Source: Gammaproteobacteria bacterium (GTDB taxonomy: Bacteria > Pseudomonadota > Gammaproteobacteria > Eutrophobiales > Eutrophobiaceae). From it: a stretch of DNA of 64,000 bases. Positions 19,497 to 51,472 of the stretch are shown here, one piece after another; within the stretch, counting starts at the first letter, position 1; the number at the start of each line of letters is the position of its first letter. The position numbers and the translations under genes are program-made. The stretch is from NCBI GenBank assembly GCA_965601665.1, contig OZ271833.1:5092-69091 (forward strand). The letters run 5' to 3'. The notes beneath the pieces were generated by a model that was not told where the DNA came from, did not search any database, and was given only the letters and a program-made list of their open reading frames with translations.

Positions 19497-21017
19497 CTAG
19501 AAGAAACCCAGTGGATTGATGTCGTAACTTACCAACATATTTTTTGTCTGTTGGTAATGGTCAAGCATCATCTTGTGTGTTTCACGACCAACGCCAGACT
19601 TTTTGTAACCACCAAAGGCAGCGTGAGCTGGATACTGGTGATAGCAGTTCATCCAAACTCGACCAGCCTGAATACCCCTGCCCATACGATAGGCCCGGTT
19701 GGTATCACGGGTCCAGACGCCGGCACCAAGACCAAACTCGGTGTCATTGGCGATAGCCAGTGCTTCTGCCTCGTCCTTGAACGTCGTTACTGAAACGACA
19801 GGTCCGAAGATTTCTTCCTGGAAAACGCGCATCTTGTTGTTGCCTTTAAGGAGCGTCGGCTTGATATAAAACCCGTCACATTGTGCACCTTCCAGAGATT
19901 CAGCTTCACCGCCTACCAGTACCTGCGCACCTTCGTCTCGGCCGATCTTGATATAGTTGAGGATCTGGTCGAATTGTTCCTGGGAGGCCTGTGCGCCTAC
20001 CATGACATCGGTATCAAGCGGGTTACCCCGTTTGATATCGCCAATGCGTTTTACAACCAGCTCGATGAACTGTTCGTAGATTGATTCCTGCACCAGCATA
20101 CGTGATGGGCACGTGCACACTTCGCCCTGGTTAAAGAAAGCGAGTACTGCGCCCTCTACAGCCTTACTGACGAAATCGTCTTCCTGGTCCATGATATCTT
20201 CAAAGAATACGTTCGGTGATTTACCACCCAGCTCCACGGTAGAAGGAATGATATTGTCAGCAGCATATTTCATGATCATGGAGCCTACCGGCGTAGAGCC
20301 GGTGAAAGCGATCTTGCTGATACGCGTACTCGTAGCCAGCGCCTTACCTGCCTCAGCACCAAAACCGTTTACAATATTCAGCACACCTTTTGGTAACAGG
20401 TCACTGATCAATTCGGCAAGAACCAGAATTGATGCCGGGGTTTGTTCTGCCGGTTTCATGATAATGCAGTTGCCTGCTGCAAGCGCGGGCGCCAGCTTCC
20501 ACGCTGCCATCAATAGTGGAAAGTTCCAGGGAATGATTTGACCTACGACGCCCAACGGTTCATGAAAGTGATAGGCAACCGTATTTTCATCAATTTCACT
20601 TAGGGAGCCTTCCTGTGACCTTAAGCATCCTGCGAAATAGCGGAAGTGGTCTGCAGACAGCGGCACATCGGCGTTGAGTGTTTCTCGAATTGCCTTCCCG
20701 TTGTCCCATGTTTCGGCGACAGCCAGCTTTTCCAGGTTTTCATCGATTCGGTCAGCAATTTTCAACAGTATATTTGAACGTGCTGCAGGTGAGGTACTCG
20801 CCCATTCGTCTTTCACTGCATGTGCCGCATCAAGCGCTTGTTCGATATCTTCATCGGTTGAGCGAGGTATTTTACAAAAGGCCTTGCCATTTACAGGGGA
20901 TATATTGTCAAAATATTCTCCCTTGGCAGGGGCTACCCATTCACCACCAATAAAGTTGTCATATTGCGGTTTGAAATCCACTACCGCGCCGTCTGTATTT
21001 GGATCAGAATAAATCAT
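19497..21017 (-). CDS. NAD(P)-dependent aldehyde dehydrogenase (AldB-like)
   Basis: 506 aa; ALDH family catalytic region (ELGGKSP, conserved Cys in VCTCPSR context). Confidence 0.85.
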
Positions 21018-21103
21018 GATTGCTATCCTCCTCTAATTACTCTGATAGTTATAGTTAACCGGTTTCTGGTGTCTTCAATAAACCAGAAGTGTTGCAAGGC
21101 CGA

Positions 21104-21403
21104 TTAATGTATTTTTCCGTCAGAATTTTTTATCTGCGTACAATTGAAGGCGCAACGAGCTCTCGCCTGGAGAAGTTCGTCACGCCAGATTGTTTGTGCC
21201 TGCATTACCACTACCTCAACGACCGGGTTGGCGGAAAACTCAGGATGTGTCTGTATTTGTTTCATCATATGCACCAGCGCCATGGCATGATTCACCGATG
21301 GTTCTTTGACGTAACAGGACATCAATCGTACTAGTGATGACAGAAGGGCACATAGATCTGGAAATTCGGCTGGGTCTTTATCTTTACTGAACTTATTTTG
21401 CAT
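21104..21403 (-). CDS. small Cys-containing hypothetical protein (99 aa), putatively Fur-regulated
   Basis: ORF with two Fur-box-like palindromes 45-130 bp upstream. Confidence 0.4.
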   Translation of the reverse strand: MQNKFSKDKDPAEFPDLCALLSSLVRLMSCYVKEPSVNHAMALVHMMKQIQTHPEFSANPVVEVVVMQAQTIWRDELLQARARCAFNCTQIKNSDGKIH

Positions 21404-21444
21404 ATTTACTGACGACGTCTTTTACATCGACATTCCTTATCTTA

Positions 21445-21460
21445 TTGATATTGTTATCAA
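21445..21460. promoter_or_regulatory. Fur-box-like palindrome TTGATATTGTTATCAA
   Basis: TGATA...TATCA inverted repeat resembling Fur 7-1-7 sites. Confidence 0.35.
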
Positions 21461-21521
21461 TATATTTTCTGAAACAGTTTTCAGCTTGCTCTATATTTTA
21501 ATGTACAAATATTAATATAAA

Positions 21522-21536
21522 TGATAATCGTTATCA
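21522..21536. promoter_or_regulatory. Fur box TGATAATCGTTATCA
   Basis: 14/15 match to the TGATAATnATTATCA Fur consensus. Confidence 0.5.
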
Positions 21537-21663
21537 ATATAAAGCAGTCGAAATGCAATAATTAGTTCTCTGTAGTGCCGGGAAAGAACAGCCGTAATCG
21601 GCATGATTACGGAGTTAAATGACAAAAGGATGGTTTTATTATGTCGTTGCAGTGTCTATTTCA

Positions 21664-21690
21664 AATATAAAAGATGACCGTCCCTGGTCA
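21664..21690 (-). terminator. intrinsic terminator of the heme operon (after the globin gene)
   Basis: hairpin TGACC-gtccct-GGTCA followed on the minus strand by TCTTTTATATTT. Confidence 0.55.
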
Positions 21691-21703
21691 CCATCATCTT
21701 GAT

Positions 21704-22117
21704 CTATGCGGCTTGTTTTGTTGCATCTATCATCACACCTGCAAGTGTCATGTAGGTTTCAGTCCATGCCGCTTTAACATCCTCGGTAAATCCATCTCCA
21801 AGCCCTTGCTCTAATGTCCATAATAACGCAGTGGCGACCTTGGCGTAGTCTTCTTCTTTTACACCGTAGCCGGCATGGCGTTTACCCATATCCTGTACCG
21901 CAGGAATGATGCTTTCCAGGTCATTCAGACTGCCTACGGCAGTATCAAGCATGGTCATGAGTTTCTTGCCTTGTTCCGTCATGTCATGGGTGAAAAGTGG
22001 TTTTACTTCAGGTGATAATTCAAACAACCTCGCATAAAACATTGCGGCCGCTTGTTCTGAAATCGGTTTTACCTGTGCCCATGTACTGGTAACCAGATCA
22101 ATTTGTTGTGGAGTCAT
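21704..22117 (-). CDS. single-domain bacterial hemoglobin (VHb-like, 3-on-3 globin), cytoplasmic
   Basis: 137 aa, no signal peptide; FYARLFELSPEVKPLF, distal Gln (QGKKL), proximal His (KRHAGYGV) align with Vitreoscilla hemoglobin, recalled from memory. Confidence 0.85.
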   Translation of the reverse strand: MTPQQIDLVTSTWAQVKPISEQAAAMFYARLFELSPEVKPLFTHDMTEQGKKLMTMLDTAVGSLNDLESIIPAVQDMGKRHAGYGVKEEDYAKVATALLWTLEQGLGDGFTEDVKAAWTETYMTLAGVMIDATKQAA

Positions 22118-22140
22118 TGTGTTGTCCTCGTAAGGTAGTT

Positions 22141-22506
22141 TTAAGGTTTGTGACTTTTTGCCAATTCGACCATGTAGTCCACAGCCGCCTTGACTTCTTC
22201 ATCTGTCAACTCAGGATTTCCACCGCGTTCGGGCATCATGCTGTCATCGGGACCAAAGAATCCATTGATAGCATGTTCGTAAAGTACTTCCTTGCCCTTA
22301 TCGATGCGAAAACCCCATTCTTCATAATCAAGGGGGATAGGTGCACCTGCTATCCCCCAGCCATGACAGCCCTCGCACGTGTCCATCCAGATTGCCTTTG
22401 CCTTGATTAAATGCGCGTCATCAAAATCCTTGTAACGGGATTTATCTTCAGCTTGAACAATCGAAGTAAAAAACAATATTGAAATAACAAGTGTGAGGGC
22501 ACGCAT
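22141..22506 (-). CDS. periplasmic class I monoheme cytochrome c (c5/c552-like)
   Basis: signal peptide, CEGCHG heme site, MPERGGNP Met-ligand region. Confidence 0.8.
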   Translation of the reverse strand: MRALTLVISILFFTSIVQAEDKSRYKDFDDAHLIKAKAIWMDTCEGCHGWGIAGAPIPLDYEEWGFRIDKGKEVLYEHAINGFFGPDDSMMPERGGNPELTDEEVKAAVDYMVELAKSHKP

Positions 22507-22510
22507 CGTA

Positions 22511-23098
22511 TTAACCCTTAACCGGTATACGAATCACGACGCCGCCCATGACATCGCCAAGTTTGAAATCACTCTTGGGCGTATCCTTGTGCTCGTTATG
22601 GCAACTGACACATACCGGTGCTACGGCGGGGTCAGCATAAACGGCAGTGAAATAAGTGGTACCACCAAGTTCTTCTACACCGTAGTAGTTCTCACCCTTG
22701 TTTTCGGCAACATAGGCAAGGCCAGCTTTTTCTACCTCCGTGCGTGGTGCATTTTGCTTGTTGATAGGCCACAACGATTGCAGCGAATAGGTGAACTGGT
22801 CGGTCTTTTTGGAAACTTCTTCAGCACCAAAACGGAACATCTGTGCCGGTAACACCAGTGCCTTGTCATCTTCGAAGTGTTCGCTGGCCTTGATGACCTT
22901 ATCTTTCTTGACTAGTCTGTTCACAATTTTTTTTGTGTAGACAGCGCGGTCAGTTGACATTACCAGGTGTAACCAGTCCGCCAATTGCTTGGGTGTGAAT
23001 GTAGGGGTTTCCGCGATTTCCGATGAAGCAGTTAGCGGTATAGCCAGAACTGCGACGATCGAACTCGTCAGTAACACTTTTTTTAGTCTAGACATCAT
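22511..23098 (-). CDS. periplasmic DUF3365 (Tll0287-like) PAS-like heme-c protein
   Basis: signal peptide; single CVSCH near the C-terminus; SLWPINKQNAPRTEVEKAGL and GDVMGGVVIRIPV resemble the DUF3365 signature (..SLKPRNP.N.PD.WE.. and ..GDLRGAISV.IP). Confidence 0.6.
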   Translation of the reverse strand: MMSRLKKVLLTSSIVAVLAIPLTASSEIAETPTFTPKQLADWLHLVMSTDRAVYTKKIVNRLVKKDKVIKASEHFEDDKALVLPAQMFRFGAEEVSKKTDQFTYSLQSLWPINKQNAPRTEVEKAGLAYVAENKGENYYGVEELGGTTYFTAVYADPAVAPVCVSCHNEHKDTPKSDFKLGDVMGGVVIRIPVKG

Positions 23099-23129
23099 AC
23101 TTCTCCTGTAGAAATGACAGTATTACGGT

Positions 23130-24566
23130 TTAAAACAATTCATTATTTTGCTGTTCACGAAGACGCTTTTTCTTTTCCTCTGCCTCAATCATCCGAACCT
23201 CGGCCATATCCATGCTTTCAATATGCACCGATGGTTGTCCGGAAAAATTATTTTTAATCAGTGCCAGATCAGCGAGTGCATCGATACTGAAGCCAAGGCT
23301 ATGGCAGTCCATGCAAACAGGTCTGATCATCTTTTCATTCGGTTTAAGCGTATCGTTCTGGTTATGCTGAACGATGCCCATATAAAACATGCCGTCCATG
23401 AATTCCTTTTCTATCCGTGGCATATGACAGGTAGCGCAGGTGACACCACTGTGTTCCGGTAGCTCGCCAACCTGTTCCTTTTTCCAGAGCTCGTGGTGCG
23501 GGGAATCGATATACGCCAGGCTATGTTCATCATTATGGCAACCCAGGCAGGCATCGATGGATGCGATTTTCGTATCGTAATCATGAGCACCATGACAGCT
23601 GTTGCAGGTTAGCTCCTCGTGTTTTGCGTCCTTTTTCATTGGCAGTTTTGCCATGGCAGGTGTCATGGGTGAAAGGTCGCGCTCCAGTTTTTCCACATCG
23701 AGACGCATACCGTGTTTACCTATGAGAAAGCCATCAACTTCTGGTGTGTGACAAGTTGCACAGGCCTTGTGGTCTGGCTTGTTCACCCAGACCGTTTCTT
23801 CCTCGATAGTTTGCTGATGGCAGGCATTACAATTCACACCGCTGTTGGCATGTGCAGTGTCGTACCAGGAATGGACGATCTCTATATCTACATCGATGTC
23901 CTGTGGGTAAACGGCTTCAACCAGTTTCAACCTCTCCAGTGGATAGTCCCTGCTGGGATAGTCGGGCAATACTGCTGCGTATTCAGCCAGGTTCAAATCA
24001 GGAGGTAGTTCCTGTCTATCCAGTATGTCGGGTTTATGCAGATGCTTGACCAGATAGTCTTCATACAGCGCCTGGTTGTCGTGATAATTGTGACAGCCGG
24101 CTGATGCACAGGTATCAAAGGCCATCCCTTCGTGGCTGGGTCTTTCCTTGGCAATGTCGTTGTGGCAAAGGTTGCAATAGTCCGGTGGCATGGTCAGGCC
24201 CATGTCCTGTGTGATTTCAGGATTGTGCTCCACGTGACAGGTGACGCAGTAGCGGGCGTCGAGTATTTCTACCCGGTCGGCATTCCTTGGATCGGTAAAT
24301 TTACTCTTTGGATGTTTATCCTTGTTTTCTTTCAATGCATCGCCATGGCAATTCATGCAGGCATTTTGTATCGCTTCTTCATCGGCGAACGATTCGCTAT
24401 GGCAGGCATTGCAGGCGAGTTCAATCTGGTGATGGCCATGGGTGGTTTCACCAGGAAGGAAAATGCTTTTATCTGCTGCCTTGTTATTAATCTTCATTAC
24501 CAGGTACGTTGTTAATGCAATCGTTAATAAAATCCATGTCAGCCATAGCCACGTGTTTCTTTTCAC
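23130..24566 (-). CDS. membrane-anchored multiheme c-type cytochrome (10 CxxCH plus one CX4CH-like CASAGCH)
   Basis: N-terminal TM anchor, then CNACH, CMNCH, CVTCH, CNLCH, CASAGCH, CNACH, CATCH, CNSCH, CLGCH, CATCH, CMDCH. Confidence 0.85.
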   Translation of the reverse strand: MKRNTWLWLTWILLTIALTTYLVMKINNKAADKSIFLPGETTHGHHQIELACNACHSESFADEEAIQNACMNCHGDALKENKDKHPKSKFTDPRNADRVEILDARYCVTCHVEHNPEITQDMGLTMPPDYCNLCHNDIAKERPSHEGMAFDTCASAGCHNYHDNQALYEDYLVKHLHKPDILDRQELPPDLNLAEYAAVLPDYPSRDYPLERLKLVEAVYPQDIDVDIEIVHSWYDTAHANSGVNCNACHQQTIEEETVWVNKPDHKACATCHTPEVDGFLIGKHGMRLDVEKLERDLSPMTPAMAKLPMKKDAKHEELTCNSCHGAHDYDTKIASIDACLGCHNDEHSLAYIDSPHHELWKKEQVGELPEHSGVTCATCHMPRIEKEFMDGMFYMGIVQHNQNDTLKPNEKMIRPVCMDCHSLGFSIDALADLALIKNNFSGQPSVHIESMDMAEVRMIEAEEKKKRLREQQNNELF

Positions 24567-24588
24567 CTAACTTGAATCCTTTCAATGC

Positions 24589-26604
24589 CTAGAAGTAATA
24601 GGTTTTGAAGATGTGAAAACCAAGCAAAACGGGGATTGGCCAGAACAACAGGATATGCAACCAGTTACCAAGGCTTCGAACCTGTCTGACTGTCCTGGCT
24701 TCCAGTTTGTGTTCAAGCGCTATGACCGAACCAACCACGGTGCCCACCAGTAGCAGCGCGGTAAAACTCATCATCAACAGGAAATTAATGTTGTCGCCAA
24801 GGCGAAAGCCGGTATGCACGAGTAAAGCAAAGATCGCAGAACCGCCTAACAAGGCATGCAGCAGTCTCCAGATTGGAAAGTCACCCCAACTGAACCATTT
24901 AATTCGTTTGCGCAATGAAAGGATTAACACCAACGTGGTCATGCCCAGTAGCGTAAAGCCGCTGATTTGTTTAAACAGGCTATCTGTCCACAGCATGTCC
25001 CAGCGCCAGGGAACCTGTACGGTGCTGTTATACGGCACCGCGGGTAACAGGTAGGCAATAGCACACATGATGAAAATTACTGCCGAGCCATACCACAAGG
25101 GTTTCCATGCCCTGACAGGTTCGATATCTTTCTGGCCCAGCATGTTAACCAGCAAAGGTTTGCATGACCCGCATACCGTCGATGCGCCTGTTTTTTCAGC
25201 CAGCGCCTGTACCGTGCTGCATCCGTTCTCAATCTCCTTAGCTAGATAGCCGCGGGACAGGCCATTGCAGGAACAAATGGTTGCCTCGGCTGGCCAAAGG
25301 TTTACTTCTTCAAGACTGTCACTGTCCCACAGCTCGCCAGTTTCAACGAAGTGTTTTAGTTGCCAGGGGAAGAGTAATTTGCCTTTCTTTACATGTTCTT
25401 TAAGTTGAATCAGCTCGGCCCATTCACCAATGGCGATCACGCCGAGCAGCTGACCACGATATACATTCAGGCGTCGATAGAGTTTGTCCTTTTGGAAAAT
25501 ATACTGCGTGTAGGTACGCGTGCTTTCGTCAACGTCGCCCATGCTAAATACTGGCAGACCAACAACTTTAAGGCTGGTTGCCAGTACCGTGCCCTTGTAC
25601 TTACTGGGTATACTGGCGATATTGCGGGCAGCAATGCCTGCCTGTTCAAAACCGGGCGCAACAATGCCGTACACTTCGCCCAGGTGTTCACAACATTCAC
25701 CAATAGCATAAATATCGGGATCGCTGGTCTGCATACTGTCATTGACCTTGATGCCACGACCAAAGGCCAGTTTTGACTGCCTGGCCAATTCAATGTTGGG
25801 TCGAATCCCGGTTGACACAATAAGCGTGTCGCAATGAATGGTTTCTCCAGATCGCAGTTCTATTGATCGGATTCGGTTTTCACTATCACCGTGTATCGCT
25901 TTGACACTATCTTGCAGATAGACATGAATACCCATGCTAATGACGTGCTGTTTGAATAGCTCTGCGGCTGTTTCATCAAGTTGACGGAACATTAAATAGC
26001 GGTTGTGTTCGATGACACTGACATCAGTACTATATCTTTGCATTGCCCTGGCTGCTTCCAGGCCAAGTAGCCCGCCACCCAGCACAACGGTACGGCGACT
26101 GCGGACGCGGCGCGCGATGAGTTTTTCTGCATCATCCATGCTGCGAAACTGGTAGATGCCTTCGAGATCGATGCCTGGTATTTCAGGAATGAATGGACTG
26201 GAACCAGTAGCAAGGATTAGTTGCTCGTATTCCTGTACATTGCCATATTCATCCTCAATAAGTTTGTTCTCACGGTCTATGCGCTCTACACGGCAATTAA
26301 AACGCTGGATGAGTAGACTTGAATCAGTATTCGCACCGGTAATGACGATGTCTTCGTGGTTTACCTCACCGGCAAGCAAAGACGATAACCTCACACGGTT
26401 GTAAGGGACCCATGATTCATCACCATAAATAACGACAGGTTGCCCGGTTGAATAATCAAGCAACTCACTGACGAAACGCATACCAACCGGGCCACTGCCA
26501 ATGATGACAATGGGCTTTTGGCCATTCATAAGAATGCTTTCCGCTTGTCTTGTATCCAGTTTTAATGCTGTATTCACAATTTTCTGACCCAAAAAAAACG
26601 CCAC
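24589..26604 (-). CDS. fusion of a NirB-type FAD/NAD(P)H oxidoreductase, a BFD-like [2Fe-2S] domain and a C-terminal 5-TM di-heme-b (ferric-reductase-like) membrane domain
   Basis: IVIIGSGPVGMRF dinucleotide fold, GGGLLGLEAA second Rossmann, CSCNG...CGSCKP BFD motif, then 5 predicted TM helices with His pairs H-x13-H in two helices (LLHALLGGSAIFALLVH; WLHILLFWPIPVLLGFH). Confidence 0.75.
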   Translation of the reverse strand: MAFFLGQKIVNTALKLDTRQAESILMNGQKPIVIIGSGPVGMRFVSELLDYSTGQPVVIYGDESWVPYNRVRLSSLLAGEVNHEDIVITGANTDSSLLIQRFNCRVERIDRENKLIEDEYGNVQEYEQLILATGSSPFIPEIPGIDLEGIYQFRSMDDAEKLIARRVRSRRTVVLGGGLLGLEAARAMQRYSTDVSVIEHNRYLMFRQLDETAAELFKQHVISMGIHVYLQDSVKAIHGDSENRIRSIELRSGETIHCDTLIVSTGIRPNIELARQSKLAFGRGIKVNDSMQTSDPDIYAIGECCEHLGEVYGIVAPGFEQAGIAARNIASIPSKYKGTVLATSLKVVGLPVFSMGDVDESTRTYTQYIFQKDKLYRRLNVYRGQLLGVIAIGEWAELIQLKEHVKKGKLLFPWQLKHFVETGELWDSDSLEEVNLWPAEATICSCNGLSRGYLAKEIENGCSTVQALAEKTGASTVCGSCKPLLVNMLGQKDIEPVRAWKPLWYGSAVIFIMCAIAYLLPAVPYNSTVQVPWRWDMLWTDSLFKQISGFTLLGMTTLVLILSLRKRIKWFSWGDFPIWRLLHALLGGSAIFALLVHTGFRLGDNINFLLMMSFTALLLVGTVVGSVIALEHKLEARTVRQVRSLGNWLHILLFWPIPVLLGFHIFKTYYF

Positions 26605-27228
26605 AAGTCAATTGATAGCCAATCAACCATGTGACGCCTTTGTCCCTTAAATAATCGAGTAACTAAAACGTTACTGTTTCTACATATATCAATCCCGCCA
26701 TTAGGATCGCTAATTAGTTTGCAGAATTTATGCCATTAACTCATTCCCGTTTAAGTAATTGTTTTTCATGTAAATGAAAAATTTGTTATGTGCGTAAGCA
26801 GTATTTTTCTGCACTGTTTTGATTAACGCTGCATCATTATTGAACAAGACGAGTCTGCAAACGTGCTGCCAGTTTGACTTAATAATAAAAATGACAAGCA
26901 CAAAAATGCACATGTTTTTATCTGACCATTACTCTTTAACCTTCTACAACAAAATTTTAAGCCTGAAGTTGACCATGCATTAGCGTTAATAACGTGTTGT
27001 TGAAAATGTTTGGCACTTAAATCGGGCAAACAGGTTTAATTACGTTCTATTGTTGTGCATGACAAACTGGTCTTATTAAGGTTTGAAAATAAAAAATACA
27101 GGAATATCAGCTTGATATAATGTTGGCCTGGAATTTGCTGATTAGGATTACAAAACGTGGGAGTAATTATTTATTGCCCAGCGTTAAGTTGATTACAAAG
27201 GCGTAGTCACCGTATTGAATTGGTAAAG

Positions 27229-27268
27229 GAGCCACGCACAGCGTCATGTCTGTGCTGGCTTTTTTTTT
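27229..27268 (+). terminator. intrinsic terminator in the leader of the porin gene (candidate NasT/ANTAR-controlled attenuator)
   Basis: AGCCA-CGCACAG-cgtcatgt-CTGTG-CTGGCT followed by T9, 25 nt before the porin start; no upstream + strand gene to terminate. Confidence 0.6.
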
Positions 27269-30581: not shown

Positions 30582-30797
30582 CTTGCGCCCAAGTTGTGCA
30601 CGAAATGCGCGCTAGCGAATATTTTGGTGCATCTCAAGTCGGTAACAGTCGATGTGCATTTCGAAAAATATAAGCAATATCAACATGTTTTCTTATTTAT
30701 CGCGATTGGCACACGTCTTGCGATATAGAATTGAGATTTAAGTATGAGGTTACGTTAGCCTCAAATTCATTACTGACAAATTGGTAATAAAGGGCAA

Positions 30798-30836
30798 AGG
30801 CGTCCTGAAGCTATCAGCTTCTGGACGCTTTTTTTA
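30798..30836 (+). terminator. leader terminator upstream of nrtA (likely NasT antitermination target)
   Basis: GGCGTCC-TGAAGC-tatca-GCTTC-TGGACGC followed by T7, 30 nt before the nrtA start. Confidence 0.65.
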
Positions 30837-30867
30837 TGCCTGAAATTCATAACTGGAGTAGGTATCA

Positions 30868-38038: not shown

Positions 38039-39304
38039 ATGTCGATGTCGGGTAAAAAAATTATCGTAATCGGCAATGGCATGGCCGCGATTCGATTCCT
38101 CGAGCAGCTATTTGAAGATGACGCATCTACGTGTCGCGTTACCGTCTTTGGCCAGGAGCCCCACGCGGGTTATAACCGGATACTGTTATCACCATTGTTA
38201 AGCGGTGAGCAAACACTGGAAGACGTCATTACACACCCTCGTAGTTGGTATCAGGATAGAAATATCGAATTAATTACCAACACGCGTATTGACAACATCG
38301 ATAGCGAAAACAAATGCATTACGGACCATAATGGCGACATACATCATTATGACCAGTTGATTATTGCGACAGGCTCCAGGCCATTTGTCCCTGATTTACC
38401 GGGTACGGATCTTGATGGCGTATTTACCTATCGTACGATTGATGATGTAGATGCCATGCTGACTGCTGGCAATCAGGGTAAACATGCCGTTGTAATCGGT
38501 GGAGGATTACTTGGACTGGAAGTTGCCTATGGTCTTAAAGCCAGGGGTTTGGATGTCAGCGTTTGCCATCGGCACTGTACACTAATGGAAAAACAGCTGG
38601 ATGACACCGCCTCCCGGCATCTTTCGTCCATACTGGCACAAAAAGATATAGAGATACTTACCGAGGCCAACACCTTGAAACTGGAAGGTGATGCGCGAGT
38701 AAAGTCTGTCGTGCTCGATGATGGCAGGCAATTACCCGCGGATATAGTCGTGTTTGCTGTTGGCATTGTGCCCGACATCACGCTGGCAACGGCTGCGGGT
38801 ATCGACTGTGAGAAAGGCATACTGGTAGATGAAAAAATGCAAACCTCGGTGCCTGATATTTTTGCTATTGGTGAATGTGCTCAGCATGATGGCGTTACCT
38901 ACGGGCTGGTAGCGCCTCTCTATGAGCAGGCAACAGTACTCGCCAGCTATCTTAACGGCGATAGACAGGCGGCCTACCAGGGCTCAATCAATGCAACAGG
39001 TTTAAAAGTAACCGGTGTCCATCTCTATTCTGCCGGTCAATTTAACGAAGACGAACAATGTAAAACCATGCAGCTGAGTGATGCTGCCAATAGGCTCTAC
39101 CGTAAGCTTGTTTTCAAAAACAGCAGGTTGATTGGTGTGCTGTTGTTTGGTGATATACGCGGCTCCAACTGGTTCCATGAACTTATCGAAACCGGGCAAA
39201 CTATCGACAACATTGATCCGTTAATGATCTTTGGCGAACCGGAATGGTTGTTACCCCTCTCGAATGAAGATGACATGACGCTGGCCGAGGCGAGCTATGC
39301 CTGA
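38039..39304 (+). CDS. NasC-like FAD/NAD(P)H oxidoreductase (electron-transfer subunit for assimilatory nitrate reductase), paralogous to the NirB N-terminal domain
   Basis: 421 aa; IIVIGNGMAAIRF, GGGLLGLEVA, GECAQHDG; overlaps the nasA start by 8 nt. Confidence 0.8.
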   Translation: MSMSGKKIIVIGNGMAAIRFLEQLFEDDASTCRVTVFGQEPHAGYNRILLSPLLSGEQTLEDVITHPRSWYQDRNIELITNTRIDNIDSENKCITDHNGDIHHYDQLIIATGSRPFVPDLPGTDLDGVFTYRTIDDVDAMLTAGNQGKHAVVIGGGLLGLEVAYGLKARGLDVSVCHRHCTLMEKQLDDTASRHLSSILAQKDIEILTEANTLKLEGDARVKSVVLDDGRQLPADIVVFAVGIVPDITLATAAGIDCEKGILVDEKMQTSVPDIFAIGECAQHDGVTYGLVAPLYEQATVLASYLNGDRQAAYQGSINATGLKVTGVHLYSAGQFNEDEQCKTMQLSDAANRLYRKLVFKNSRLIGVLLFGDIRGSNWFHELIETGQTIDNIDPLMIFGEPEWLLPLSNEDDMTLAEASYA

Positions 39305-41969
39305 CAACAAATCCTGTGCAGTGAAAACAACCTGTCCCTACTGCGGTGTTGGCTGTGGTGTCATAGCAACGGTGAATGAGAAGGGTAACGTCTCTATACA
39401 GGGGGACAAGGATCATCCTGCAAATTTTGGTCGGCTGTGCTCCAAGGGATCGGCACTGGGCGAGACCGTTGATCTCGACCATCGATTGTTAAGACCGCAG
39501 GTGAATCAACAGGTTGTCAGTTGGGAACAGGCACTGGATGAGGTGGCAGAACGATTCAGGGAAACGATCGCAATGCACGGCAAGGAATCCGTTGCGTTTT
39601 ACGTGTCAGGCCAGTTGTTGACCGAAGACTACTATGTTGCCAATAAACTCATGAAGGGCTTTATTGGCAGTGGCAATATTGATACGAACTCACGCCTTTG
39701 CATGTCTTCTGCTGTTGCCGGGCATAAACGTGCCTTCGGTAACGACACCGTAGGTCTTTGTTATGAAGACCTGGAACAGGCAGACGTTATTACGCTCATC
39801 GGCTCGAACGTAGTCTGGTGCCACCCGGTACTGTATCAGCGCATTGAAGCGGCGAGAAAAAAACATAATACGAAGATAGTTGTTGTTGATCCCAGGCAGA
39901 CCCACAGTTGTGAAGGGGCCGATCTGCATCTACCGATTAAGCCGGGAACAGATGCCACGTTATTCAACGGACTGTTAAGTTATCTGGCTGAAAACGAGCT
40001 GCTGGATAACGATTATATAAAAAACCATACCAACGGTTTTGATGCTGCTATAGACGTAGCCAGGAAAACTGCAGGCGATATCGACACCGTGGCAAGGTGC
40101 TGTGATATTGGAGTTGGTGATTTGCTTCAGTTTTACAAGCTATTTGCAGCCACAGAAAAAAACATCAGCTTTTTTTCCATGGGCATCAACCAGTCGTCCA
40201 GCGGCGTCGACAAGGTGAATACCATTATTAATGTGCACCTTGCCACCGGTCGCATTGGCAAACCGGGTATGGGCGCCTTTTCGATCACCGGGCAACCTAA
40301 TGCAATGGGTGGCAGGGAAGTTGGCGGGCTGGCATCGACGTTGGCAGCCCATATGGATTTCACCGACACACATATTGATCGGGTTGGCCGTTTCTGGGGA
40401 ACTGACAACGTTGCCACAGGACCCGGATTGAAAGCCGTAGACCTGTTTCGCAACATTGACGAGGGCAAGGTCAAGGCACTATGGGTGATGGCAACCAATC
40501 CGGCAGTGAGTATCCCTGATGCCAGCGCGGTAGAGCGTGCCATTAGCAAATGTAATTTTGTTGTGGTCTCGGATTGTATTAGTAATACAGATACGACGCG
40601 ACATGCTGATGTACTGTTGCCGGCGCTGGGCTGGGGAGAAAAATCCGGCACGGTGACCAATTCGGAAAGACGTATTTCAAGACAGCGAACATTCCTGTCG
40701 CCGCCTGCAGAGGCAAAACCGGACTGGTGGATCATCTGCCAGGTAGCGCGTCGACTTGGCTTTGAGGACGGGTTTGATTTCCGGTCAGAAGCCGATATTT
40801 TTCGTGAACATGCAGCCTTGTCGGGTTATGAAAACCAGGGCACAAGGGATTTCGATATTAGTGCTTACACCAATATTGATGATAACGCCTATGATAACCT
40901 GGTGCCGGTGCAATGGCCTGTAAATGATTCACACCCGGAAGGCACACAGCGTCTGTTGACCAATGGTCATTTTTATACTGCCGATAATAAGGCCTGCTTT
41001 ATTGCTGTTACTCCAAGACTGCCAGTTGAAATTACCAGTAACAGCTATCCCCTGGTGTTAAATACCGGTCGTGTCAGGGACCACTGGCATACAATGACAC
41101 GCACTGCAAAATCAAAGCGATTGTCACGTCACATACGCGAACCCTTTGCGCAGTTGCATCCTGCGACGGCTGCCGATTACAACATCAGCCACGATCAACT
41201 GGTAGAGATTACAAGTCAATGGGGTAGCGTGGTAGTGCGTGCCGACATTACCAATAGACAGCGCAGAGGTGAAATATTCGTTCCACTGCACTGGAATGAT
41301 CAATTTTCTGCAAGGGCGCGCGTAGATACGGTGGTGAATCCACATGTCGATCCTGTCTCCGGACAACCTGAGTTCAAACACACGCCGGTTAACATCACAC
41401 CTGTACAACATCAGTGGTTTGGTTTCATGTTGAGCCGCAAGGAATATTCACTACCCATGATTTACTGGACGAAACTACGCGAGGAAAAAAGCTGGCGTTA
41501 CGAGTTTTCGGATACTTGCCCGTATACAATTGACTGGTTTAAGCAACGGATGCGAAATGGCCGCGACTACGATTGGGTCGAGTTTGTCGATGAGATCAAT
41601 AATGTAACACGCTATCTATGGTTCGATGAGCAGGAATTGCAGGGCTGCATATTCACAGCAGACAGCTACGAGGCATTACCTGCAAGAAACTGGTTATCCA
41701 GTCAATTTTCCCGGTTAGAACTGGCAATGTCACAACGAACGCAGTTACTAACTGCTTCAGGCGAGAACAACATTGAAGATCAGGGTGAAGTGATCTGTTC
41801 CTGCTTTAACGTGGGTAAAAACGCCATACTTGATTGCATTAATAAATCCTGTTCATCCAGTGTTGATACGATAGGTGTGGCTTTAAAGGCCGGAACCAAC
41901 TGTGGCAGTTGTAAGCCGGAGATCAAGCATCTCATCAGTAACAGCAACAGGCAGCAATCACCTGATTAA
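39297..41969 (+). CDS. nasA: assimilatory nitrate reductase catalytic subunit (molybdopterin, 4Fe-4S, C-terminal BFD 2Fe-2S)
   Basis: N-terminal CPYCGVGCG cluster, MopB domains, C-terminal ICSCFNVG...CGSCKPEI. Confidence 0.92.
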   Translation: MPDNKSCAVKTTCPYCGVGCGVIATVNEKGNVSIQGDKDHPANFGRLCSKGSALGETVDLDHRLLRPQVNQQVVSWEQALDEVAERFRETIAMHGKESVAFYVSGQLLTEDYYVANKLMKGFIGSGNIDTNSRLCMSSAVAGHKRAFGNDTVGLCYEDLEQADVITLIGSNVVWCHPVLYQRIEAARKKHNTKIVVVDPRQTHSCEGADLHLPIKPGTDATLFNGLLSYLAENELLDNDYIKNHTNGFDAAIDVARKTAGDIDTVARCCDIGVGDLLQFYKLFAATEKNISFFSMGINQSSSGVDKVNTIINVHLATGRIGKPGMGAFSITGQPNAMGGREVGGLASTLAAHMDFTDTHIDRVGRFWGTDNVATGPGLKAVDLFRNIDEGKVKALWVMATNPAVSIPDASAVERAISKCNFVVVSDCISNTDTTRHADVLLPALGWGEKSGTVTNSERRISRQRTFLSPPAEAKPDWWIICQVARRLGFEDGFDFRSEADIFREHAALSGYENQGTRDFDISAYTNIDDNAYDNLVPVQWPVNDSHPEGTQRLLTNGHFYTADNKACFIAVTPRLPVEITSNSYPLVLNTGRVRDHWHTMTRTAKSKRLSRHIREPFAQLHPATAADYNISHDQLVEITSQWGSVVVRADITNRQRRGEIFVPLHWNDQFSARARVDTVVNPHVDPVSGQPEFKHTPVNITPVQHQWFGFMLSRKEYSLPMIYWTKLREEKSWRYEFSDTCPYTIDWFKQRMRNGRDYDWVEFVDEINNVTRYLWFDEQELQGCIFTADSYEALPARNWLSSQFSRLELAMSQRTQLLTASGENNIEDQGEVICSCFNVGKNAILDCINKSCSSSVDTIGVALKAGTNCGSCKPEIKHLISNSNRQQSPD

Positions 41970-43573: not shown

Positions 43574-44341
43574 ATGAGCAAACACGAGCAACTCATCGAC
43601 TTTTCCAGGATCAAGGCGTCCTGTTCGAATTGCAATATGCAGGAGCTCTGTTTGCCGCGGGGACTGGACCCGGAAGATCTTGAGCAACTCGAACACGTGG
43701 TCAAGGGCTCTCGCCCGGTGCACAAGGGCGAGCATCTATTCAGAACGAATGACGAATTTACTGCTTTTTACGCGGTACGTAGTGGTTCAGTTAAATCCTA
43801 TATTATTGATGAAAACGGCGACGAGCAGGTTACCGGTTTTTATTTTCCCGGTGAGATAATGGGGTTTGATGCCATCGAAAACCACAAGCACAGTTGTTCT
43901 GTAGTTGCCATGGAAACGACGACCTACTGCACATTACCATACAACAAGCTGAACGAGATTAGTCAGAGTATTCCCGATCTGCAGAATCAGTTATTCCGTT
44001 TGTTGAGTCGCGAATTCACCAAGGAAAACCAGCTGCTACTGTCCATCAATCGCCGCTCTGCAGAAGAACGTATCGCCACGTTTTTGGTTAGCCTGTCCGG
44101 TCGTTTCAAGCGCATGGGCTATTCAGAGTGTGCATTTAATCTTCCCATGTCCCGCCAGGAGATTGGTAATTATCTTGGCCTTACAATCGAAACGGTCAGC
44201 CGTTTTTTGAGTCGTTTCCAGAGTAACGGTTTGATTGATATCAATCGCAAGGAAATACGCATCAATGATTTGCCTGCACTGCATGAAATCTGTGATGGCA
44301 ACCGTTCATTGAGTGCCAAGAAAAATAATTCCGCTGCCTGA
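43574..44341 (+). CDS. fnr: FNR, oxygen-sensing Crp/Fnr-family transcription regulator
   Basis: N-terminal Cys cluster C-x2-C-x5-C (CSNCNMQELC) plus the fourth Cys (CSVVAM), cNMP-like fold, C-terminal HTH EIGNYLGLTIETVSR. Confidence 0.85.
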   Translation: MSKHEQLIDFSRIKASCSNCNMQELCLPRGLDPEDLEQLEHVVKGSRPVHKGEHLFRTNDEFTAFYAVRSGSVKSYIIDENGDEQVTGFYFPGEIMGFDAIENHKHSCSVVAMETTTYCTLPYNKLNEISQSIPDLQNQLFRLLSREFTKENQLLLSINRRSAEERIATFLVSLSGRFKRMGYSECAFNLPMSRQEIGNYLGLTIETVSRFLSRFQSNGLIDINRKEIRINDLPALHEICDGNRSLSAKKNNSAA

Positions 44342-45112: not shown

Positions 45113-45282
45113 TCGCCCTGCTTTTTTTCAGTGCCCTGGGTATCGTCATCGTCCATCAATATCTGGTGCCCCTGTCTTTCAACGTCATCATATTGGCCTG
45201 ATTTAATTGACCAGTAAAAAATGCCGGCTATCAACAAGACGAACACCAGCGAGACAAGAATGAGTAAAAAAATGACTTCCAT
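45109..45282 (-). CDS. ccoS: cbb3 oxidase maturation protein CcoS/FixS (57 aa; below the ORF-track cutoff)
   Basis: manual translation [47 protein letters not shown]...; ATG overlaps the ccoI stop (ATGA). Confidence 0.75.
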   Translation of the reverse strand: MEVIFLLILVSLVFVLLIAGIFYWSIKSGQYDDVERQGHQILMDDDDTQGTEKKQGD

Positions 45283-47726
45283 CAGCGTTTAACTGTTTTT
45301 GCAATACGTGTAGCGTTCAATACTACAACCAGTGAACTCAAAGACATACCCAGTGCCGCCATCCATGGTGCGAGCCAGCCTGCTATCGCAAACGGTAATG
45401 CAACAAGATTATAACCAATGGCCCAGCCGAAGTTGGCACGTATCGTCGTTGATGCCTTTCTGGCGATAGTCAGTAAATTGCCAATACTATTTATATCCTG
45501 GTTTAGTAACAGGATGTCTGCATTCAACTTTGTCAGGTCACTGGCCTCGGTCATAGCAATAGCCACGTTGGCCTGAGCAAACGCCGGCGCGTCGTTGATT
45601 CCGTCCCCGACTATGCAGACTATATGTCCCTGTTGTTGCAGTGCGGCAAGCTGGGCAAGCTTGTCATCGGGTTTGAGCTCGGCCAGGTAATTTTCTATGC
45701 CCAGGTTTTCCGCACACTGCTGTACAGCACTGTGATGATCGCCGCTCATGAGCATAACCTGGTAGCCCTTGCGCTGTAATGATGACACCAGCTCAGCACT
45801 GTTTTGCCTGAGCGTATCCTCGAAGTACAGGCTGGCGACAATTTCAGTATCGGTGGCCATGACGATTCGACGTAAATCCGGTTCAGCATGTTGCAGCTGC
45901 GCTGATTCTTCACGACAACATGAACGTACAAACTGCTCGGTACCTATATACCAGTTTTGGCCATCAATGTTGCCGGCGATACCCTCGCCCGGAAAGTTGC
46001 GTAACTCGTCGTTGATTAGGTTGCCCTTGATATCACTTGCATTAAGTATGGCTTTTGCCAGTGGATGTTCAGAGCCTGATTCCAGTCTTGCAGCAAGATT
46101 AACGATTGCTTCCCTGCTATACCCGTCTGCGTAAATGTCGATATGTTTTAATTCAAGCTGTCCGGTAGTCAACGTGCCGGTTTTGTCGAATACGAAACAA
46201 TCAACCTTGGTTAACGATTCCAGCGCATTACGTTCCAGCAGCGCCATGCCTTTTTGTATCAGCGTACTTGCTGCAACCGACATCGCGGTAGGCATGGCCA
46301 GGGACAACGCGCACGGGCAACTGACCACCAGTACCGCCACCGTAATCGGCAACCACCTGGCAGGGTCAGAGATGTACCAGTAACTGGCAACTGCTGCAGC
46401 GATAGAAAGGATGGCGATGATAAATATTGACACAAGCCGATCGGCAAACTGTATCGTGCGTGTTTTTTGTGAGCCAGCCGCTTCGATCATCCTTGTCACG
46501 CCTGATAAAAACGTGGCCTCGCCAATCTGTTTTACCTGTACCGTCAGGGGTGATTCGATATTGACGCTTCCGCCGATCACATTCATGCCCGAACGCTTTT
46601 CAAGTGGCAGGCTTTCACCTGAAAGTATTGATTCATCAACGGTTGAATGCCCGGAGACGACCGTGCCGTCTACCGGTATTACTTCACCAGGCTTGACGAG
46701 GATGAGTTCATCTACTGCCAACCTGCCGATATCAATTGCCTCGGTTTCCCCGTCCTCACCAAGTCGGGTGGCATAGGCCGGTAGTACAGACAGGATATTA
46801 TCGAGATAGGCCACAGACTTTTTACGGGACATAAATTCAAAGTAACGACCGGCAAGCACGAAAAACACAAACATGACGATGGAATCATAATAAACATGCC
46901 CGCTTCCCTTGAGGGTTGCCGTAATGCTGCCCACCATCGCAATCAGTAACCCGAGTGATATGGGAATATCCATACCTGGATGCCGGTTCCTGATATCCCG
47001 AAATGCACCCATGAAGATCTTTCTTGCCGAGTAAAGCAATACAGGCAGTGTCAACACCAGGCTGATCCAGGACAGGAAGCGTCGATAAACATCTTCGATG
47101 CCCGAGTATTCGCCGAAATATAGCGCGATGGCAATCATCATGACCTGCATACCAAACAGGCCGGCGATACCCAGACTGATAAGCTGTGATTTGCGTTCGT
47201 CCTCGTAGAACTGTTCGCGCTGTTGATGATTGTAAGGCTGGCTTTTATAGCCGAGCCGGAGAATGGCAGCGAGAATATCACTTAAGCGTATTTTTTGTTC
47301 CTGCCAGCTAACGCGGCAGCGCTGGGTGGTGAAGTTGACCTGGATTGCGTCGATCCCTTCCATGGCCGCAATGCGCGATTCGATCAGCCATGTGCAGGCA
47401 GGACAGCTGATGCCATCGATGATTAACGAGGCTTCTTTTGAATCAGCATTGAGCGCCTGCACGAACCCGTCCTGTACCTGCGGCAGATTAAATACATCCA
47501 GCTTGCGCAGTTCGTCCGGTACCAGTTCAGATGGCTTCTCGGGTAGTTCTGTCCGGTGACGATAATAATCCGTTAATCCCATAGTAATTATCTGCTCGGC
47601 AACGGCCTGACAGCCAGGGCAGCACATGGGTTGCGGCGTATTCTCTATAGTCACGCTCAGTTTTATTGAGCTAGGCACGGGTTCGCCGCAGTGAAAACAG
47701 GTGTTTAGGCGCTGATCCATAATCAC
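45282..47726 (-). CDS. ccoI: Cu-translocating P1B-type ATPase for cbb3 oxidase assembly (CcoI/FixI)
   Basis: N-terminal CxxC and HMA (GISCPACTW), [18 protein letters not shown]. Confidence 0.9.
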
Positions 47727-48548: not shown

Positions 48549-49259
48549 ATGAAAAACAACAATAAATTGCTACTCACTACAGGCCTTGTTTTGGCTACGC
48601 TGCTTACCAGCACCATTTCCACCAGCGCTTACGCTGTCGATGAAAAATGGAAAGTACGTTTTCGCGGTATTGGTATTATTCCTGATGATTCAAGTAATAA
48701 TATTACCGCAAATGGTACGACGGGATTGAATGCCGGCGTGGAAGTAAATGAAGCATTCGTGCCGGAGTTCGATATTACCTACATGATAACGCCGCACTGG
48801 GGTGTTGAAGCTATAGCGGGAATAGCAAAACATGATGTATCAATAGAAGGCAGCGACGGTGTCTTGTTGACCGGTCTTGGTATTAATGACGGGTTCGAGA
48901 TTTTTGACACCTGGGTTCTACCGCCGACAGTAACACTGCAATATCACTTCATGCCAGAGAGTAACATTCGCCCTTATGTAGGCGTGGGTGTTAACTACAC
49001 GGCAACCCTGTTTGATGATGCGACGGATCAATTAGAGGCTATATTGGGCCCGGTTGATGTCTCTACTAGCAATAGCTGGGGTTATGCGCTTCAGGCAGGT
49101 CTCGATTACGACATCAACGACAGCTGGTTTTTCAACGTCGATGTAAAATACATAGATATCAATACCACAGCCAAACTGGGATTCACCGGCGGCAACCTGG
49201 AAGTCGACCTGGACATCAATCCATTTGTCGTGGGCGCTGGTGTTGGTTATCGTTTCTAG
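48549..49259 (+). CDS. ompW: outer-membrane protein W
   Basis: signal peptide, 8-strand barrel periodicity, C-terminal GVGYRF. Confidence 0.8.
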   Translation: MKNNNKLLLTTGLVLATLLTSTISTSAYAVDEKWKVRFRGIGIIPDDSSNNITANGTTGLNAGVEVNEAFVPEFDITYMITPHWGVEAIAGIAKHDVSIEGSDGVLLTGLGINDGFEIFDTWVLPPTVTLQYHFMPESNIRPYVGVGVNYTATLFDDATDQLEAILGPVDVSTSNSWGYALQAGLDYDINDSWFFNVDVKYIDINTTAKLGFTGGNLEVDLDINPFVVGAGVGYRF

Positions 49260-50845: not shown

Positions 50846-50855
50846 GGGGTGAATC

Positions 50856-51470: not shown

Positions 51471-51472
51471 GC

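Follow-up and report, generated by a model that had tools for sequence, protein, structure and literature searches.

A haem-rich operon beside nitrate-assimilation genes and its predicted NAD(P)H-driven electron path to the periplasm

What could a set of haem proteins be doing beside the genes for nitrate assimilation, a pathway that in its textbook form comprises a transporter, NasA and NirBD and is all cytoplasmic? The question is raised by a stretch of 64,000 nucleotides from a gammaproteobacterium of the family Eutrophobiaceae (assembly GCA_965601665.1, contig OZ271833.1, positions 5,092 to 69,091), hereafter the window. Five of its genes, g1 to g5, encode a flavoprotein fused to a membrane domain, a multihaem cytochrome c, a haem-c protein of the former DUF3365 family, a monohaem cytochrome c and a globin. 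Every component is of a known class and the combination is apparently undescribed: no published description of this module was found in the literature searched, as had been supposed when the window was read from its letters alone (the sequence-only reading). What is distinctive is the set itself, namely a reductase of NirB or FNR type that includes a BFD domain, a putative di-haem membrane domain outside the classified families, an undecahaem cytochrome of HAO-type derivation, a haem-Cache protein and predicted ANTAR control. The module may be a nitrate- or nitrite-inducible safeguard against nitric oxide (NO) and other nitrogen oxides that works in two compartments and exports electrons through a NAD(P)H-driven chain, a reading that is preferred here tentatively and without being called probable.

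The argument begins with conservation. An alignment of the BFD and membrane parts of g1 was scanned over 185,579 genomes, one per species, and relatives were found encoded in 467 species genomes, mostly of Gamma- and Betaproteobacteria; the carriers include Thiogranum, Thiohalobacteraceae, Ectothiorhodospiraceae, Halochromatium glycolicum, Halieaceae, Ketobacter, Tenderia and Methylophilaceae. Cultured candidates among them are Noviherbaspirillum sedimenti, Mangrovimicrobium sediminis, Haliea sp. E17 and Halochromatium glycolicum DSM 11080. Synteny was sampled by fetching 80 loci, 68 of which had at least 3.3 kb downstream of g1. Among these 68, g2 is present in 67 and g3 likewise in 67, and the order g1-g2-g3 holds in all 67 informative cases, so the fusion protein is indeed co-localised with the DUF3365 and multihaem genes as the sequence-only reading would have it. 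Because g1-g2-g3 recurs in 67 of 68 loci of other species, the gene arrangement is far beyond chance. A locus that seemed to lack both g2 and g3 (L065) proved to be an artefact, with a run of masked N at that place. The cytochrome gene g4 accompanies the core in 40 of the 68 loci and the globin gene g5 in 55, and all four partners (g2 to g5) are found together in 38. In L027 and L082 g2 is present as two tandem copies, and elsewhere the globin gene is doubled or the order rearranged (L030, with g1-g2-g4-g5-g3-g5, and L056). In Noviherbaspirillum sedimenti (L001, 12829-17974) ccmABCDEF directly follows the five-gene operon, an adjacency in keeping with the large demand for haem c, 13 haems for each set of proteins; in another locus (L083, 1-6292) the operon has an unrelated JetABCD (Wadjet) defence locus a few kb upstream. 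Nitrate-assimilation (nas) genes stand within 10 kb in 36 of the 51 loci with full 10-kb flanks. A frequent arrangement is nasT-g1-g2-g3-(g4)-g5-nrtABC on one strand, several Betaproteobacteria have nasT-g1-g2-g3-nirBD, and elsewhere the five genes stand alone amid unrelated genes.

In the window itself all five genes are on the minus strand. As a mechanical open reading frame g1 spans 24589-26604, with 24589..26529 as the likely gene, and encodes Pyr_redox_2, Rubredoxin_C and Fer2_BFD domains followed by five transmembrane helices. It is followed by g2 (23130-24566) for a multihaem cytochrome c with an N-terminal transmembrane anchor, g3 (22511-23098) for a PF11845 protein (Tll0287-like, formerly DUF3365) with one CXXCH, g4 (22141-22506) for a secreted class-I monohaem cytochrome c and g5 (21704-22117) for a globin without signal peptide or reductase domain. 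The gaps of 22, 31, 4 and 23 nucleotides between the genes, as first listed, the Shine-Dalgarno-like sequences ahead of g2, g3, g4 and g5 and the same order in about 70 other genomes all speak for an operon. No minus-strand terminators were found between the five genes, and the terminator that had been placed after the last one is a hairpin with a T-run directly 3' of g5 (21692-21673, minus strand); a second terminator-like hairpin lies beyond g5 at 21592-21612. The start of g1 has to be moved. Translation most likely begins at ATG 26529 (M26) and not at GTG 26604, where the sequence-only reading had begun the gene, because the GTG falls within the leader terminator and the ATG start agrees with a database protein of 646 amino acids that is 100% identical (P0001). 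The spacer upstream of g1 is as AT-rich as had been noted (GC fraction 0.33-0.37); its description as a 690-bp promoter region needs correction in that it also carries ANTAR-type leaders for both divergent units. On the other side, an AT-rich 690-bp spacer (21017-21703) separates the operon from a gene for an ExaC-type acetaldehyde dehydrogenase (19497-21017), and a 99-residue open reading frame within it (21104-21403, minus strand) has no family match.

The divergent side supports the link to nitrate assimilation that had been proposed, and adds to it a type of leader common to the operon, nrtA and the porin gene. Its products are a porin-like protein, NasT with a receiver and an ANTAR domain, NasS, NrtA, NrtB and NrtCD and, further on, NirB, NirD, a NasB-like reductase and NasA. 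ANTAR targets have been described as two hairpins with stems of at least 3 base pairs and hexaloops that have A as the first and G as the fourth base; the second hairpin and an intrinsic terminator exclude each other (PMC3369931). By sequence and fold, the 5' leader of the operon (26588..26709, minus strand) has a putative antitermination architecture of this ANTAR/NasT type. It comprises a hairpin CGATCCU-AAUGGC-GGGAUUG (26709-26690), a hairpin with the loop GUUUUA (26675-26658) and a hairpin GAC-AAAGGC-GUC (26644-26633), termed P2, whose 3' side is the 5' arm of a terminator (about 26639-26599) that ends in U8 (26598-26591); next to P2 stands the GUUUUA-loop hairpin, and the canonical AAUGGC hexaloop hairpin comes about 45 nucleotides further upstream. 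On the plus strand, the leader of the porin-nasT-nasS unit (27190..27265) contains the hairpin GAUUAC-AAAGGC-GUAGUC, a terminator with U9 (27236-27257) and the 9-mer CAAAGGCGT (27196-27204), and this unit may also be under antitermination control, which would amount to autoregulation. In the nrtA leader (30788..30845, plus strand) a hairpin GGGC-AAAGGC-GUCC overlaps a terminator with U7, and this leader probably serves the nrt-nirBD-nasA unit as its NasT target. The 9-mer occurs four times in the window against 0.67 expected, and three of the four copies belong to the leaders of g1, porin and nrtA, where each is in sense orientation and precedes a terminator. The Rfam family P11 (RF00625), which we take to be a Pseudomonas nas leader, matches weakly upstream of nrtA (30695-30829, 31.6 bits, below gathering), and one related locus gives a weak narK-RNA match that is also below the gathering score.

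The same architecture is clearer across the family. Wherever g1 is preceded by nasT, a strong terminator with a U-run closes the spacer, about 100-130 nucleotides ahead of the g1 start. The related g1 leaders contain a conserved hairpin, GGAC-AAMGRC-GUCC, whose 3' side is the 5' arm of the terminator, and further upstream a covarying hairpin with the hexaloop AxxGxx (P1). Compensatory changes affect five of the six pairs of P1 in an alignment of 18 sequences, and 92% of its cells are paired, a share that drops to 25-49% once the partner is slid; since the sequences were partly selected for having P1, the percentage is biased and the variety of pair types is not. The ANTAR motif with a U-run precedes g1 in 26 loci and nrtA in 9, and a covariance model (R1) detected 34 sites (E < 0.1) in 1.4 Mb of loci, 21 of them placed by position upstream of g1 and 11-13 upstream of nrtA or porin-type genes. 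At the family level, P1, P2 and the terminator that the ANTAR target rule calls for are thus present upstream of g1 in many loci. The architecture of these leader RNAs points to a predicted membership of the operon in the NasS-NasT regulon, and the nitrogen-oxide context that had been suggested for it draws strength from the leader in common with nrtA and porin as well as from its location within the nas operon in many genomes. A palindrome upstream of g1, TTGAT..ATCAA, was considered as an FNR box and set aside: its spacing is 5 nucleotides instead of 4, and it forms the terminator stem.

If the operon belongs to nitrate assimilation, what does its first product contribute? Databases label g1 'nitrite reductase large subunit', and this label is wrong. 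Its Pfam matches above cutoffs are Pyr_redox_2 (1.3e-56), Pyr_redox, Rubredoxin_C and Fer2_BFD, so the N-terminal domains for flavin adenine dinucleotide (FAD) and NAD(P)H and the BFD [2Fe-2S] domain of NirB are present, and the N-terminal 490 residues align to the FAD/NAD and BFD parts of NirB (3e-119) and to NorW (5e-51). As a whole g1 falls outside NirB: TIGR02374 is matched only at model positions 1-468 of 794, with a score of 399.6 where the cutoff is 578.35, and NF011565 gives 294 against 883, whereas the genuine NirB encoded in the window reaches 1097 and 1300. The sirohaem/[4Fe-4S] half of NirB is replaced in g1 by the membrane domain. NirB and NorW are NADH-dependent donors for nitrogen-oxide reduction, a role that g1 may share. 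The BFD-like domain (25138..25281, minus strand; residues 442-489 of the 671-residue open reading frame; PF04324) contains Cys444, Cys446, Cys478 and Cys481, and its profile matches Bfd of P. aeruginosa (4e6k, 1e-8). In three homologues of 927-1256 amino acids (P0391, P0396, P0326) a Pro/Ser/Ala-rich low-complexity linker of about 250-570 residues runs from the BFD to the membrane domain.

The membrane domain (24607..25092, minus strand; residues 505-666) has five transmembrane helices, with H583 and H597 on the third and H650 and H664 on the fifth, each pair spaced as Hx13H. Both these four His and the four BFD Cys are invariant in 120 homologues of 46-100% identity. Four His on two transmembrane helices, in pairs that are 100% conserved, make up the signature of a di-haem cytochrome b, so that the flavoprotein with a fused di-haem-b membrane domain of the sequence-only reading stands, haem occupancy being predicted from sequence. 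The modelled domain is a helical bundle like CybB, HyaC, the transmembrane part of NOX5, cytochrome b6 and a designed di-haem bundle. The basic loops of g1 (RKR 565-567; 625-647) are on the same side as the cytoplasmic flavoprotein, which suggests one His of each pair near each membrane face and two haems predicted to be stacked across the membrane. The path from NAD(P)H through the membrane to the periplasm that had been drawn for the operon agrees with these invariant Cys and His and with the fixed fusion, and would make g1 the donor for its periplasmic neighbours.

No Pfam family matches the membrane domain above threshold. Below threshold, DUF6713 appears in 7 of 20 members tested, DUF4405, DUF4079, Ferric_reduct and Ni_hydr_CYTB in one or two members each, and PepSY_TM is also among the faint matches; all of these except DUF6713 presumably belong to a di-haem cytochrome clan. 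The membrane part has no relatives among PDB sequences, where solely the BFD part has solved ones. A profile of this domain alone, run against 1.84 billion cluster representatives (50% identity), retrieved no more than 810 proteins, a small family, and in the best 150 of these matches the domain is always C-terminal to a NAD(P)H-flavin reductase plus BFD, most of the 150 being g1-like fusions of about 640-690 amino acids. Shorter matches (about 150-500 amino acids) were considered as stand-alone forms and rejected, their lengths forming a continuous range, and are most likely gene fragments.

Two types of reductase precede the domain. Besides the pyridine-nucleotide-disulphide type of g1, three variants of FNR type were found (P0314, P0374 and P0257; loci L085, L086 and L087), in which two or three cNMP-binding domains or EF-hands, the BFD and FAD_binding_6/NAD_binding_1 come before the membrane domain. 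Orthologues of g2 (47-50% identity) follow the variant genes, and an orthologue of g3 (65%) follows in L087, the sole variant contig long enough. As the FNR-type variants keep the same partners, the part that stays constant is predicted to comprise the membrane domain, g2 and g3, and the type of reductase and its regulation appear interchangeable. This exchange of reductases beside fixed partners is the strongest argument that the membrane domain is an exit for NAD(P)H-derived electrons toward g2 and g3. The cNMP and EF-hand variants further suggest a core that could be switched post-translationally by cyclic nucleotides or Ca2+, a regulatory design like that of NOX5.

The comparison with NOX5 brings up a different use of the electrons. 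In NOX proteins, ferric reductases and MsrQ-Fre the same electron-transfer logic operates, with two His pairs on two helices at a spacing of about 13 residues, and some g1 variants contain the EF-hand and FNR-type modules of NOX5. The module could then be a NOX-like NAD(P)H oxidase that turns periplasmic O2 into superoxide, H2O2 or water for signalling, for respiratory protection of O2-sensitive assimilatory enzymes or for disposal of excess reductant, nitrogen oxides not being its substrate. The sequence of NAD(P)H, flavin, two b haems and outside is that of NOX and ferric reductases, the transmembrane part of NOX5 is among the structural matches of g1, the variants with EF-hand or cNMP domains and an FNR-type reductase resemble the Ca2+-regulated NOX5, and the haem-Cache proteins that have been studied readily make superoxide with O2. 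The differences are of several kinds: the reductase of g1 is N-terminal, in reverse of the NOX order, and of the pyridine-nucleotide-disulphide type, there are five helices instead of six, a BFD [2Fe-2S] domain is added, the Pfam family Ferric_reduct is unmatched, and the predicted acceptor is a multihaem cytochrome c and not O2, Fe(III) or an enzyme with molybdenum cofactor. An oxidase would moreover leave unexplained the ANTAR leader and the tight nas linkage, the 11-haem protein of the HAO superfamily and the frequent globin of NO-dioxygenase type, and for these reasons we regard it as improbable.

The acceptor predicted for these electrons, g2, was expected to be a decahaem cytochrome c and is instead undecahaem, because eleven haem motifs are conserved: ten CXXCH and one CX4CH (CASAGCH, residue 153). 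All eleven were found in 121 sequences, one homologue having Ser instead of Cys321. The protein, predicted to be periplasmic, consists of an N-terminal transmembrane helix, a c3-like N-terminal half and a C-terminal half with the HAO/ONR/NrfA fold, and databases label it 'NrfA' or 'cytochrome c3 family'. The sole meaningful structural matches of its fold are HAO, IhOCC, ONR and NrfA; the comparison scores were 9.4 and 8.6 for two HAO entries, 8.1 for IhOCC, 7.6 for the reducing HAO-like Kustc0458, 5.8 for ONR, 4.6 for NrfA, 4.0 for OcwA and 3.1 for MccA. Sequence and profile searches against solved structures returned mainly NrfA, the octahaem nitrite reductase TvNiR, HAO-like proteins and IhOCC, other multihaem cytochromes giving weaker sequence-profile matches. 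Because structure and sequence both lead to HAO, ONR and NrfA, the C-terminal half, as modelled, appears to descend from the multihaem enzyme superfamily whose members convert oxides of nitrogen and sulphur. No resemblance of this half to MtrA or OmcS types was seen, and membership among decahaem proteins of DmsE/MtrA type was rejected (TIGR03508, 42.2 against a cutoff of 192.2, and eleven haems). The literature also offered the 'uet' undecahaem cluster of Tenderia and the globins of iron oxidisers, which are unrelated systems.

With HAO, ONR and NrfA, including HAOr, epsilon-Hao and IhOCC, g2 has in common the C-terminal fold and the di-haem modules (PMC8042395, PMC3701875), a CX4CH motif of a type also allowed in the HAO family, the periplasmic location and the link to nitrogen-oxide metabolism. 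It differs from them in having eleven haems and not eight (HAO, ONR) or five (NrfA), a transmembrane anchor and a c3-like domain, and its donor would be the fused NAD(P)H-flavoprotein/cytochrome b and not NrfH, cM552 or a NapC quinol dehydrogenase. No CXXCK motif was found in g2. The alignment of its CLGCH-344 to the catalytic CLNCK of TvNiR is weak. The next haem motif comes after about 33 residues, where TvNiR has about 190, and g2 is much shorter in the region of the catalytic haem.

This ancestry gives substance to the idea that the operon encodes a productive, assimilatory enzyme, a NAD(P)H-driven periplasmic reductase of nitrite (or NO, or hydroxylamine) whose product, ammonium or hydroxylamine, would be taken up. 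Such a route, with g2 or g3 as the catalyst and the globin as an accessory, would be analogous to the reverse-HURM/epsilon-Hao route of Nautilia. The HAO/ONR/NrfA fold of g2 agrees with it, members of the HAO family that lack the Tyr cross-link reduce nitrite, NO and hydroxylamine (PMC8042395), and an HAO-type cytochrome in nitrate assimilation has a precedent (PMC3701875). Eleven haems could store electrons for a multi-electron reduction, the module is predicted to be co-transcribed with nirBD or nrtABC in several Betaproteobacteria, and the conservation of g3, with many invariant Arg, Tyr, His and Asp, is like that of an enzyme. However, the nitrite reductase genes within the fetched flanks are canonical nirBD, as they are in the window, which has NasA in addition; g2 is too short between its haem motifs to hold the catalytic domain of ONR or NrfA, has no CXXCK motif and gave no sign of a five-coordinate haem. 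A path that spends NADH and dissipates membrane potential would also be a costly way to extracellular ammonium. An assimilatory reductase is in our view rather unlikely.

The third member of the core, g3, is the most conserved of the five, its median identity across loci to the protein of the window being 66% against 48-58% for the other four. It matches PF11845 with 1.7e-20 (74.4 bits, cutoff 24.1), has a signal-peptide-like N-terminus and CVSCH at residue 163, and is predicted to be secreted. The CXXCH is kept in 75 of 75 orthologues, and at least 93% of them agree at about 70 positions, with many Arg, Tyr, His, Asp, Glu, Asn and Gln residues among these. The sequence-only reading had called it a PAS-like haem-c protein of DUF3365; family and haem attachment hold, and the PAS assignment gives way to Cache, the DUF3365 fold having been reclassified under that name, also as sCache_haem (bioRxiv 10.64898/2026.02.01.703092). 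Like Tll0287, g3 is a PF11845 protein, stand-alone and secreted, with a strictly conserved CXXCH. Tll0287 and a P. putida protein are redox proteins with Cys/His ligation, and a haem-Cache member without stable Cys ligation binds NO tightly (bioRxiv 10.64898/2026.02.01.703092). In 48 of the 75 g3 orthologues there is no Cys outside the CXXCH, and no third Cys is conserved, which means that the axial Cys of Tll0287 and of the P. putida protein is missing from g3, and with it their Cys/His ligation. A further difference of g3 lies in its standing within a fixed three-gene core with a dedicated electron supply, a setting that is not described for the family (bioRxiv 10.64898/2026.02.01.703092). 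A PDB sequence search with g3 matched nothing, not even Tll0287.

The two remaining genes encode smaller haem proteins. The monohaem cytochrome c first recognised in g4 matches Pfam Cytochrome_CBB3 and Cytochrom_C and is closest in PDB to cytochrome c-556 (8hn3, 2e-13), c-555, ScyA and c5; with C44, C47, H48 and M91 invariant it is predicted to be an ordinary His/Met class-I cytochrome c of c5/c555/ScyA type. For g5 the designation as a VHb-type globin without a reductase domain of its own was apt. Its 137 amino acids match Pfam Globin and positions 3-139 of the 399-position model of Hmp, the NO-inducible flavohaemoprotein (82 against a cutoff of 432), and its PDB matches are 3wfw (2.7e-29), 3s1i and VHb (7e-15). 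Y28 (B10), F42 (CD1), Q49 (E7) and H81 (F8) are 100% conserved in 60 orthologues, and TyrB10, PheCD1, GlnE7 and HisF8 form the distal pocket known from NO-dioxygenating flavohaemoglobins. By these features g5 is a single-domain cytoplasmic globin of the flavohaemoglobin lineage and not Hmp.

A globin and a flavoprotein in one operon have a precedent in the NasT-dependent narK-bjgb-flp-nasC of Bradyrhizobium, where the two remove NO arising from nitrate assimilation (PMC4724949). The likeness lies in a single-domain globin and a flavoprotein for FAD and NAD(P)H beside nitrate-assimilation genes under NasS-NasT control, which for the present operon is predicted. It could be extended to the claim that g1 is chiefly the cognate reductase of the globin, as Flp is for Bjgb, and that the periplasmic haem proteins are a non-catalytic sensor or redox buffer; apart from the precedent, the sensor-domain superfamily to which g3 belongs and the possibility that all haems of g2 are bis-His would agree with this. 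Flp, however, is soluble and has neither a membrane b-haem domain nor periplasmic cytochromes, whereas in the present family 13 of 68 loci (19%) do without the globin and the constant core consists of the membrane domain and its periplasmic partners g2 and g3. No globin gene was called on the variant contigs, which are short, and g3 has no signalling output domain. We give a role of g1 as mainly a globin reductase only a slender chance.

The safeguard preferred here joins these elements as follows. In the cytoplasm NAD(P)H would reduce the FAD of the NirB-like part of g1, and the FAD in turn the BFD-type [2Fe-2S] cluster. Two stacked b haems, one on the cytoplasmic side (H583/H650) and one on the periplasmic side (H597/H664), would carry the electrons across the membrane to the anchored undecahaem g2, from which they would reach the haem-c Cache protein g3, with g4 as an optional side partner. 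The periplasmic end would reduce a reactive nitrogen oxide, most likely NO, with nitrite or hydroxylamine as alternatives. In the cytoplasm the TyrB10/GlnE7 globin g5 would dioxygenate NO and plausibly be re-reduced by the flavoprotein of g1, the two arms forming a two-compartment safeguard against NO from nitrate and nitrite reduction. Observed directly are the conserved gene order, the invariant cofactor-binding motifs, the fold relationships, the architecture of the leader RNA and the association with nas genes; we infer cofactor occupancy, direction of electron flow, NasT dependence and substrate. The proposal of a nitrogen oxide as the target builds on the leader together with the nas linkage, on the descent of g2, on the traits of the g3 family and on the frequent globin of NO-dioxygenase type. 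Outward flow is favoured because redox potential and membrane potential both favour it, and both disfavour the inward direction.

The inward direction would have its own logic in chemolithotrophs. Cytochrome c reduced by the oxidation of sulphur, iron or methanol could pass electrons through g4, g3, g2 and the b haems to the [2Fe-2S] cluster and FAD of g1 and in this way supply NasA and NirB with reductant. Sulphur oxidisers or methylotrophs are frequent among the carriers (Thiogranum, Thiohalobacteraceae, Ectothiorhodospiraceae, Halochromatium, Tenderia, Methylophilaceae), and the operon is found within nas clusters. From established bioenergetics such electrons would nevertheless have to move uphill twice, leaving the positive side of the membrane for the negative one and approaching the potential of NAD(P)+; the heterotroph lineages Halieaceae, Ketobacter and Noviherbaspirillum are carriers too, and NasA has its own NasB-like reductase in the window. 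Inward flow is accordingly very improbable.

Several observations weigh against the safeguard itself. In 19% of loci there is no globin gene, and 41% have no g4. No nas genes were seen on the short contigs available for the cNMP and EF-hand variants, and these variants suggest that the core may serve a wider purpose. NirBD is encoded in the window as well, so that a second nitrite reductase is not obviously needed. No catalytic site was identified in the proposed chain. The matches of g2 to NrfA and ONR are short di-haem modules outside the active-site region, its N-terminal half is modelled with low confidence, and twelve conserved non-motif His for eleven haems make an ambiguous count with regard to a five-coordinate haem; all haems of g2 could be bis-His and the protein a mere wire. 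The sole stand-alone haem-Cache protein studied is a redox protein that does not bind NO, although it is Cys/His-ligated, unlike g3 (bioRxiv 10.64898/2026.02.01.703092). In the leader of the window, finally, R1 matches the second hairpin alone, as its best match there with E 0.19, which makes this leader no clean member of the ANTAR model.

A more specific proposal goes beyond the safeguard: that the membrane domain, g2 and g3 together are a previously unknown periplasmic nitrogen-oxide reductase, wired through the membrane and driven by NAD(P)H, with its predicted catalytic site in g3 or at a haem of the HAO-derived part of g2, and that it is an overlooked standard component of nitrate assimilation in hundreds of gamma- and betaproteobacterial species. 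This we consider possible and, on present evidence, doubtful.

In the window, between NirD and the nitrate reductase, lies a gene for a 421-residue FAD reductase similar to the N-terminal part of NirB, of NasB/NasC type (38039-39304, plus strand), which overlaps the start of nasA (39297-41969, plus strand); the C-terminal region of NasA matches the Rubredoxin_C/BFD part of NirB, and the reductase/BFD module is thus used in four paralogous ways in the window, in g1, NirB, the NasB-like protein and the tail of NasA. Further away are fnr (43574-44341), a Cu P-type ATPase gene of CcoI type (45282-47726, minus strand), OmpW (48549-49259), ccoN, ccoO and ccoP (49388-52553) and ccoG (52860-54266). 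The sequence-only reading had taken fnr and the cbb3 genes as a hint of a microoxic setting. The genes are there, and the hint itself is unsupported because fnr, the cbb3 genes and the Cu-ATPase gene are 17-25 kb from the operon and because none of them was found beside the module in the two other loci with annotated flanks.

What the locus changes, in the first place, is the inventory of nitrate assimilation: a haem-rich operon stands in or beside nas clusters, with relatives in at least 467 species genomes, and its leader suggests that it is thrown by the same RNA switch. A widespread misannotation would be corrected at the same time, that of g1 as 'nitrite reductase large subunit' and of g2 as 'NrfA'. 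If the proposed role is true, a periplasmic redox step, probably for handling NO, nitrite or hydroxylamine, would be added to the assimilatory pathway. The membrane domain would found a new family of membrane cytochrome b domains and provide a way of powering multihaem cytochromes without quinol, and g3 would offer the first physiological role of a stand-alone haem-Cache protein. Such a module would also bear on the release of NO and nitrous oxide by aerobic nitrate-assimilating bacteria.

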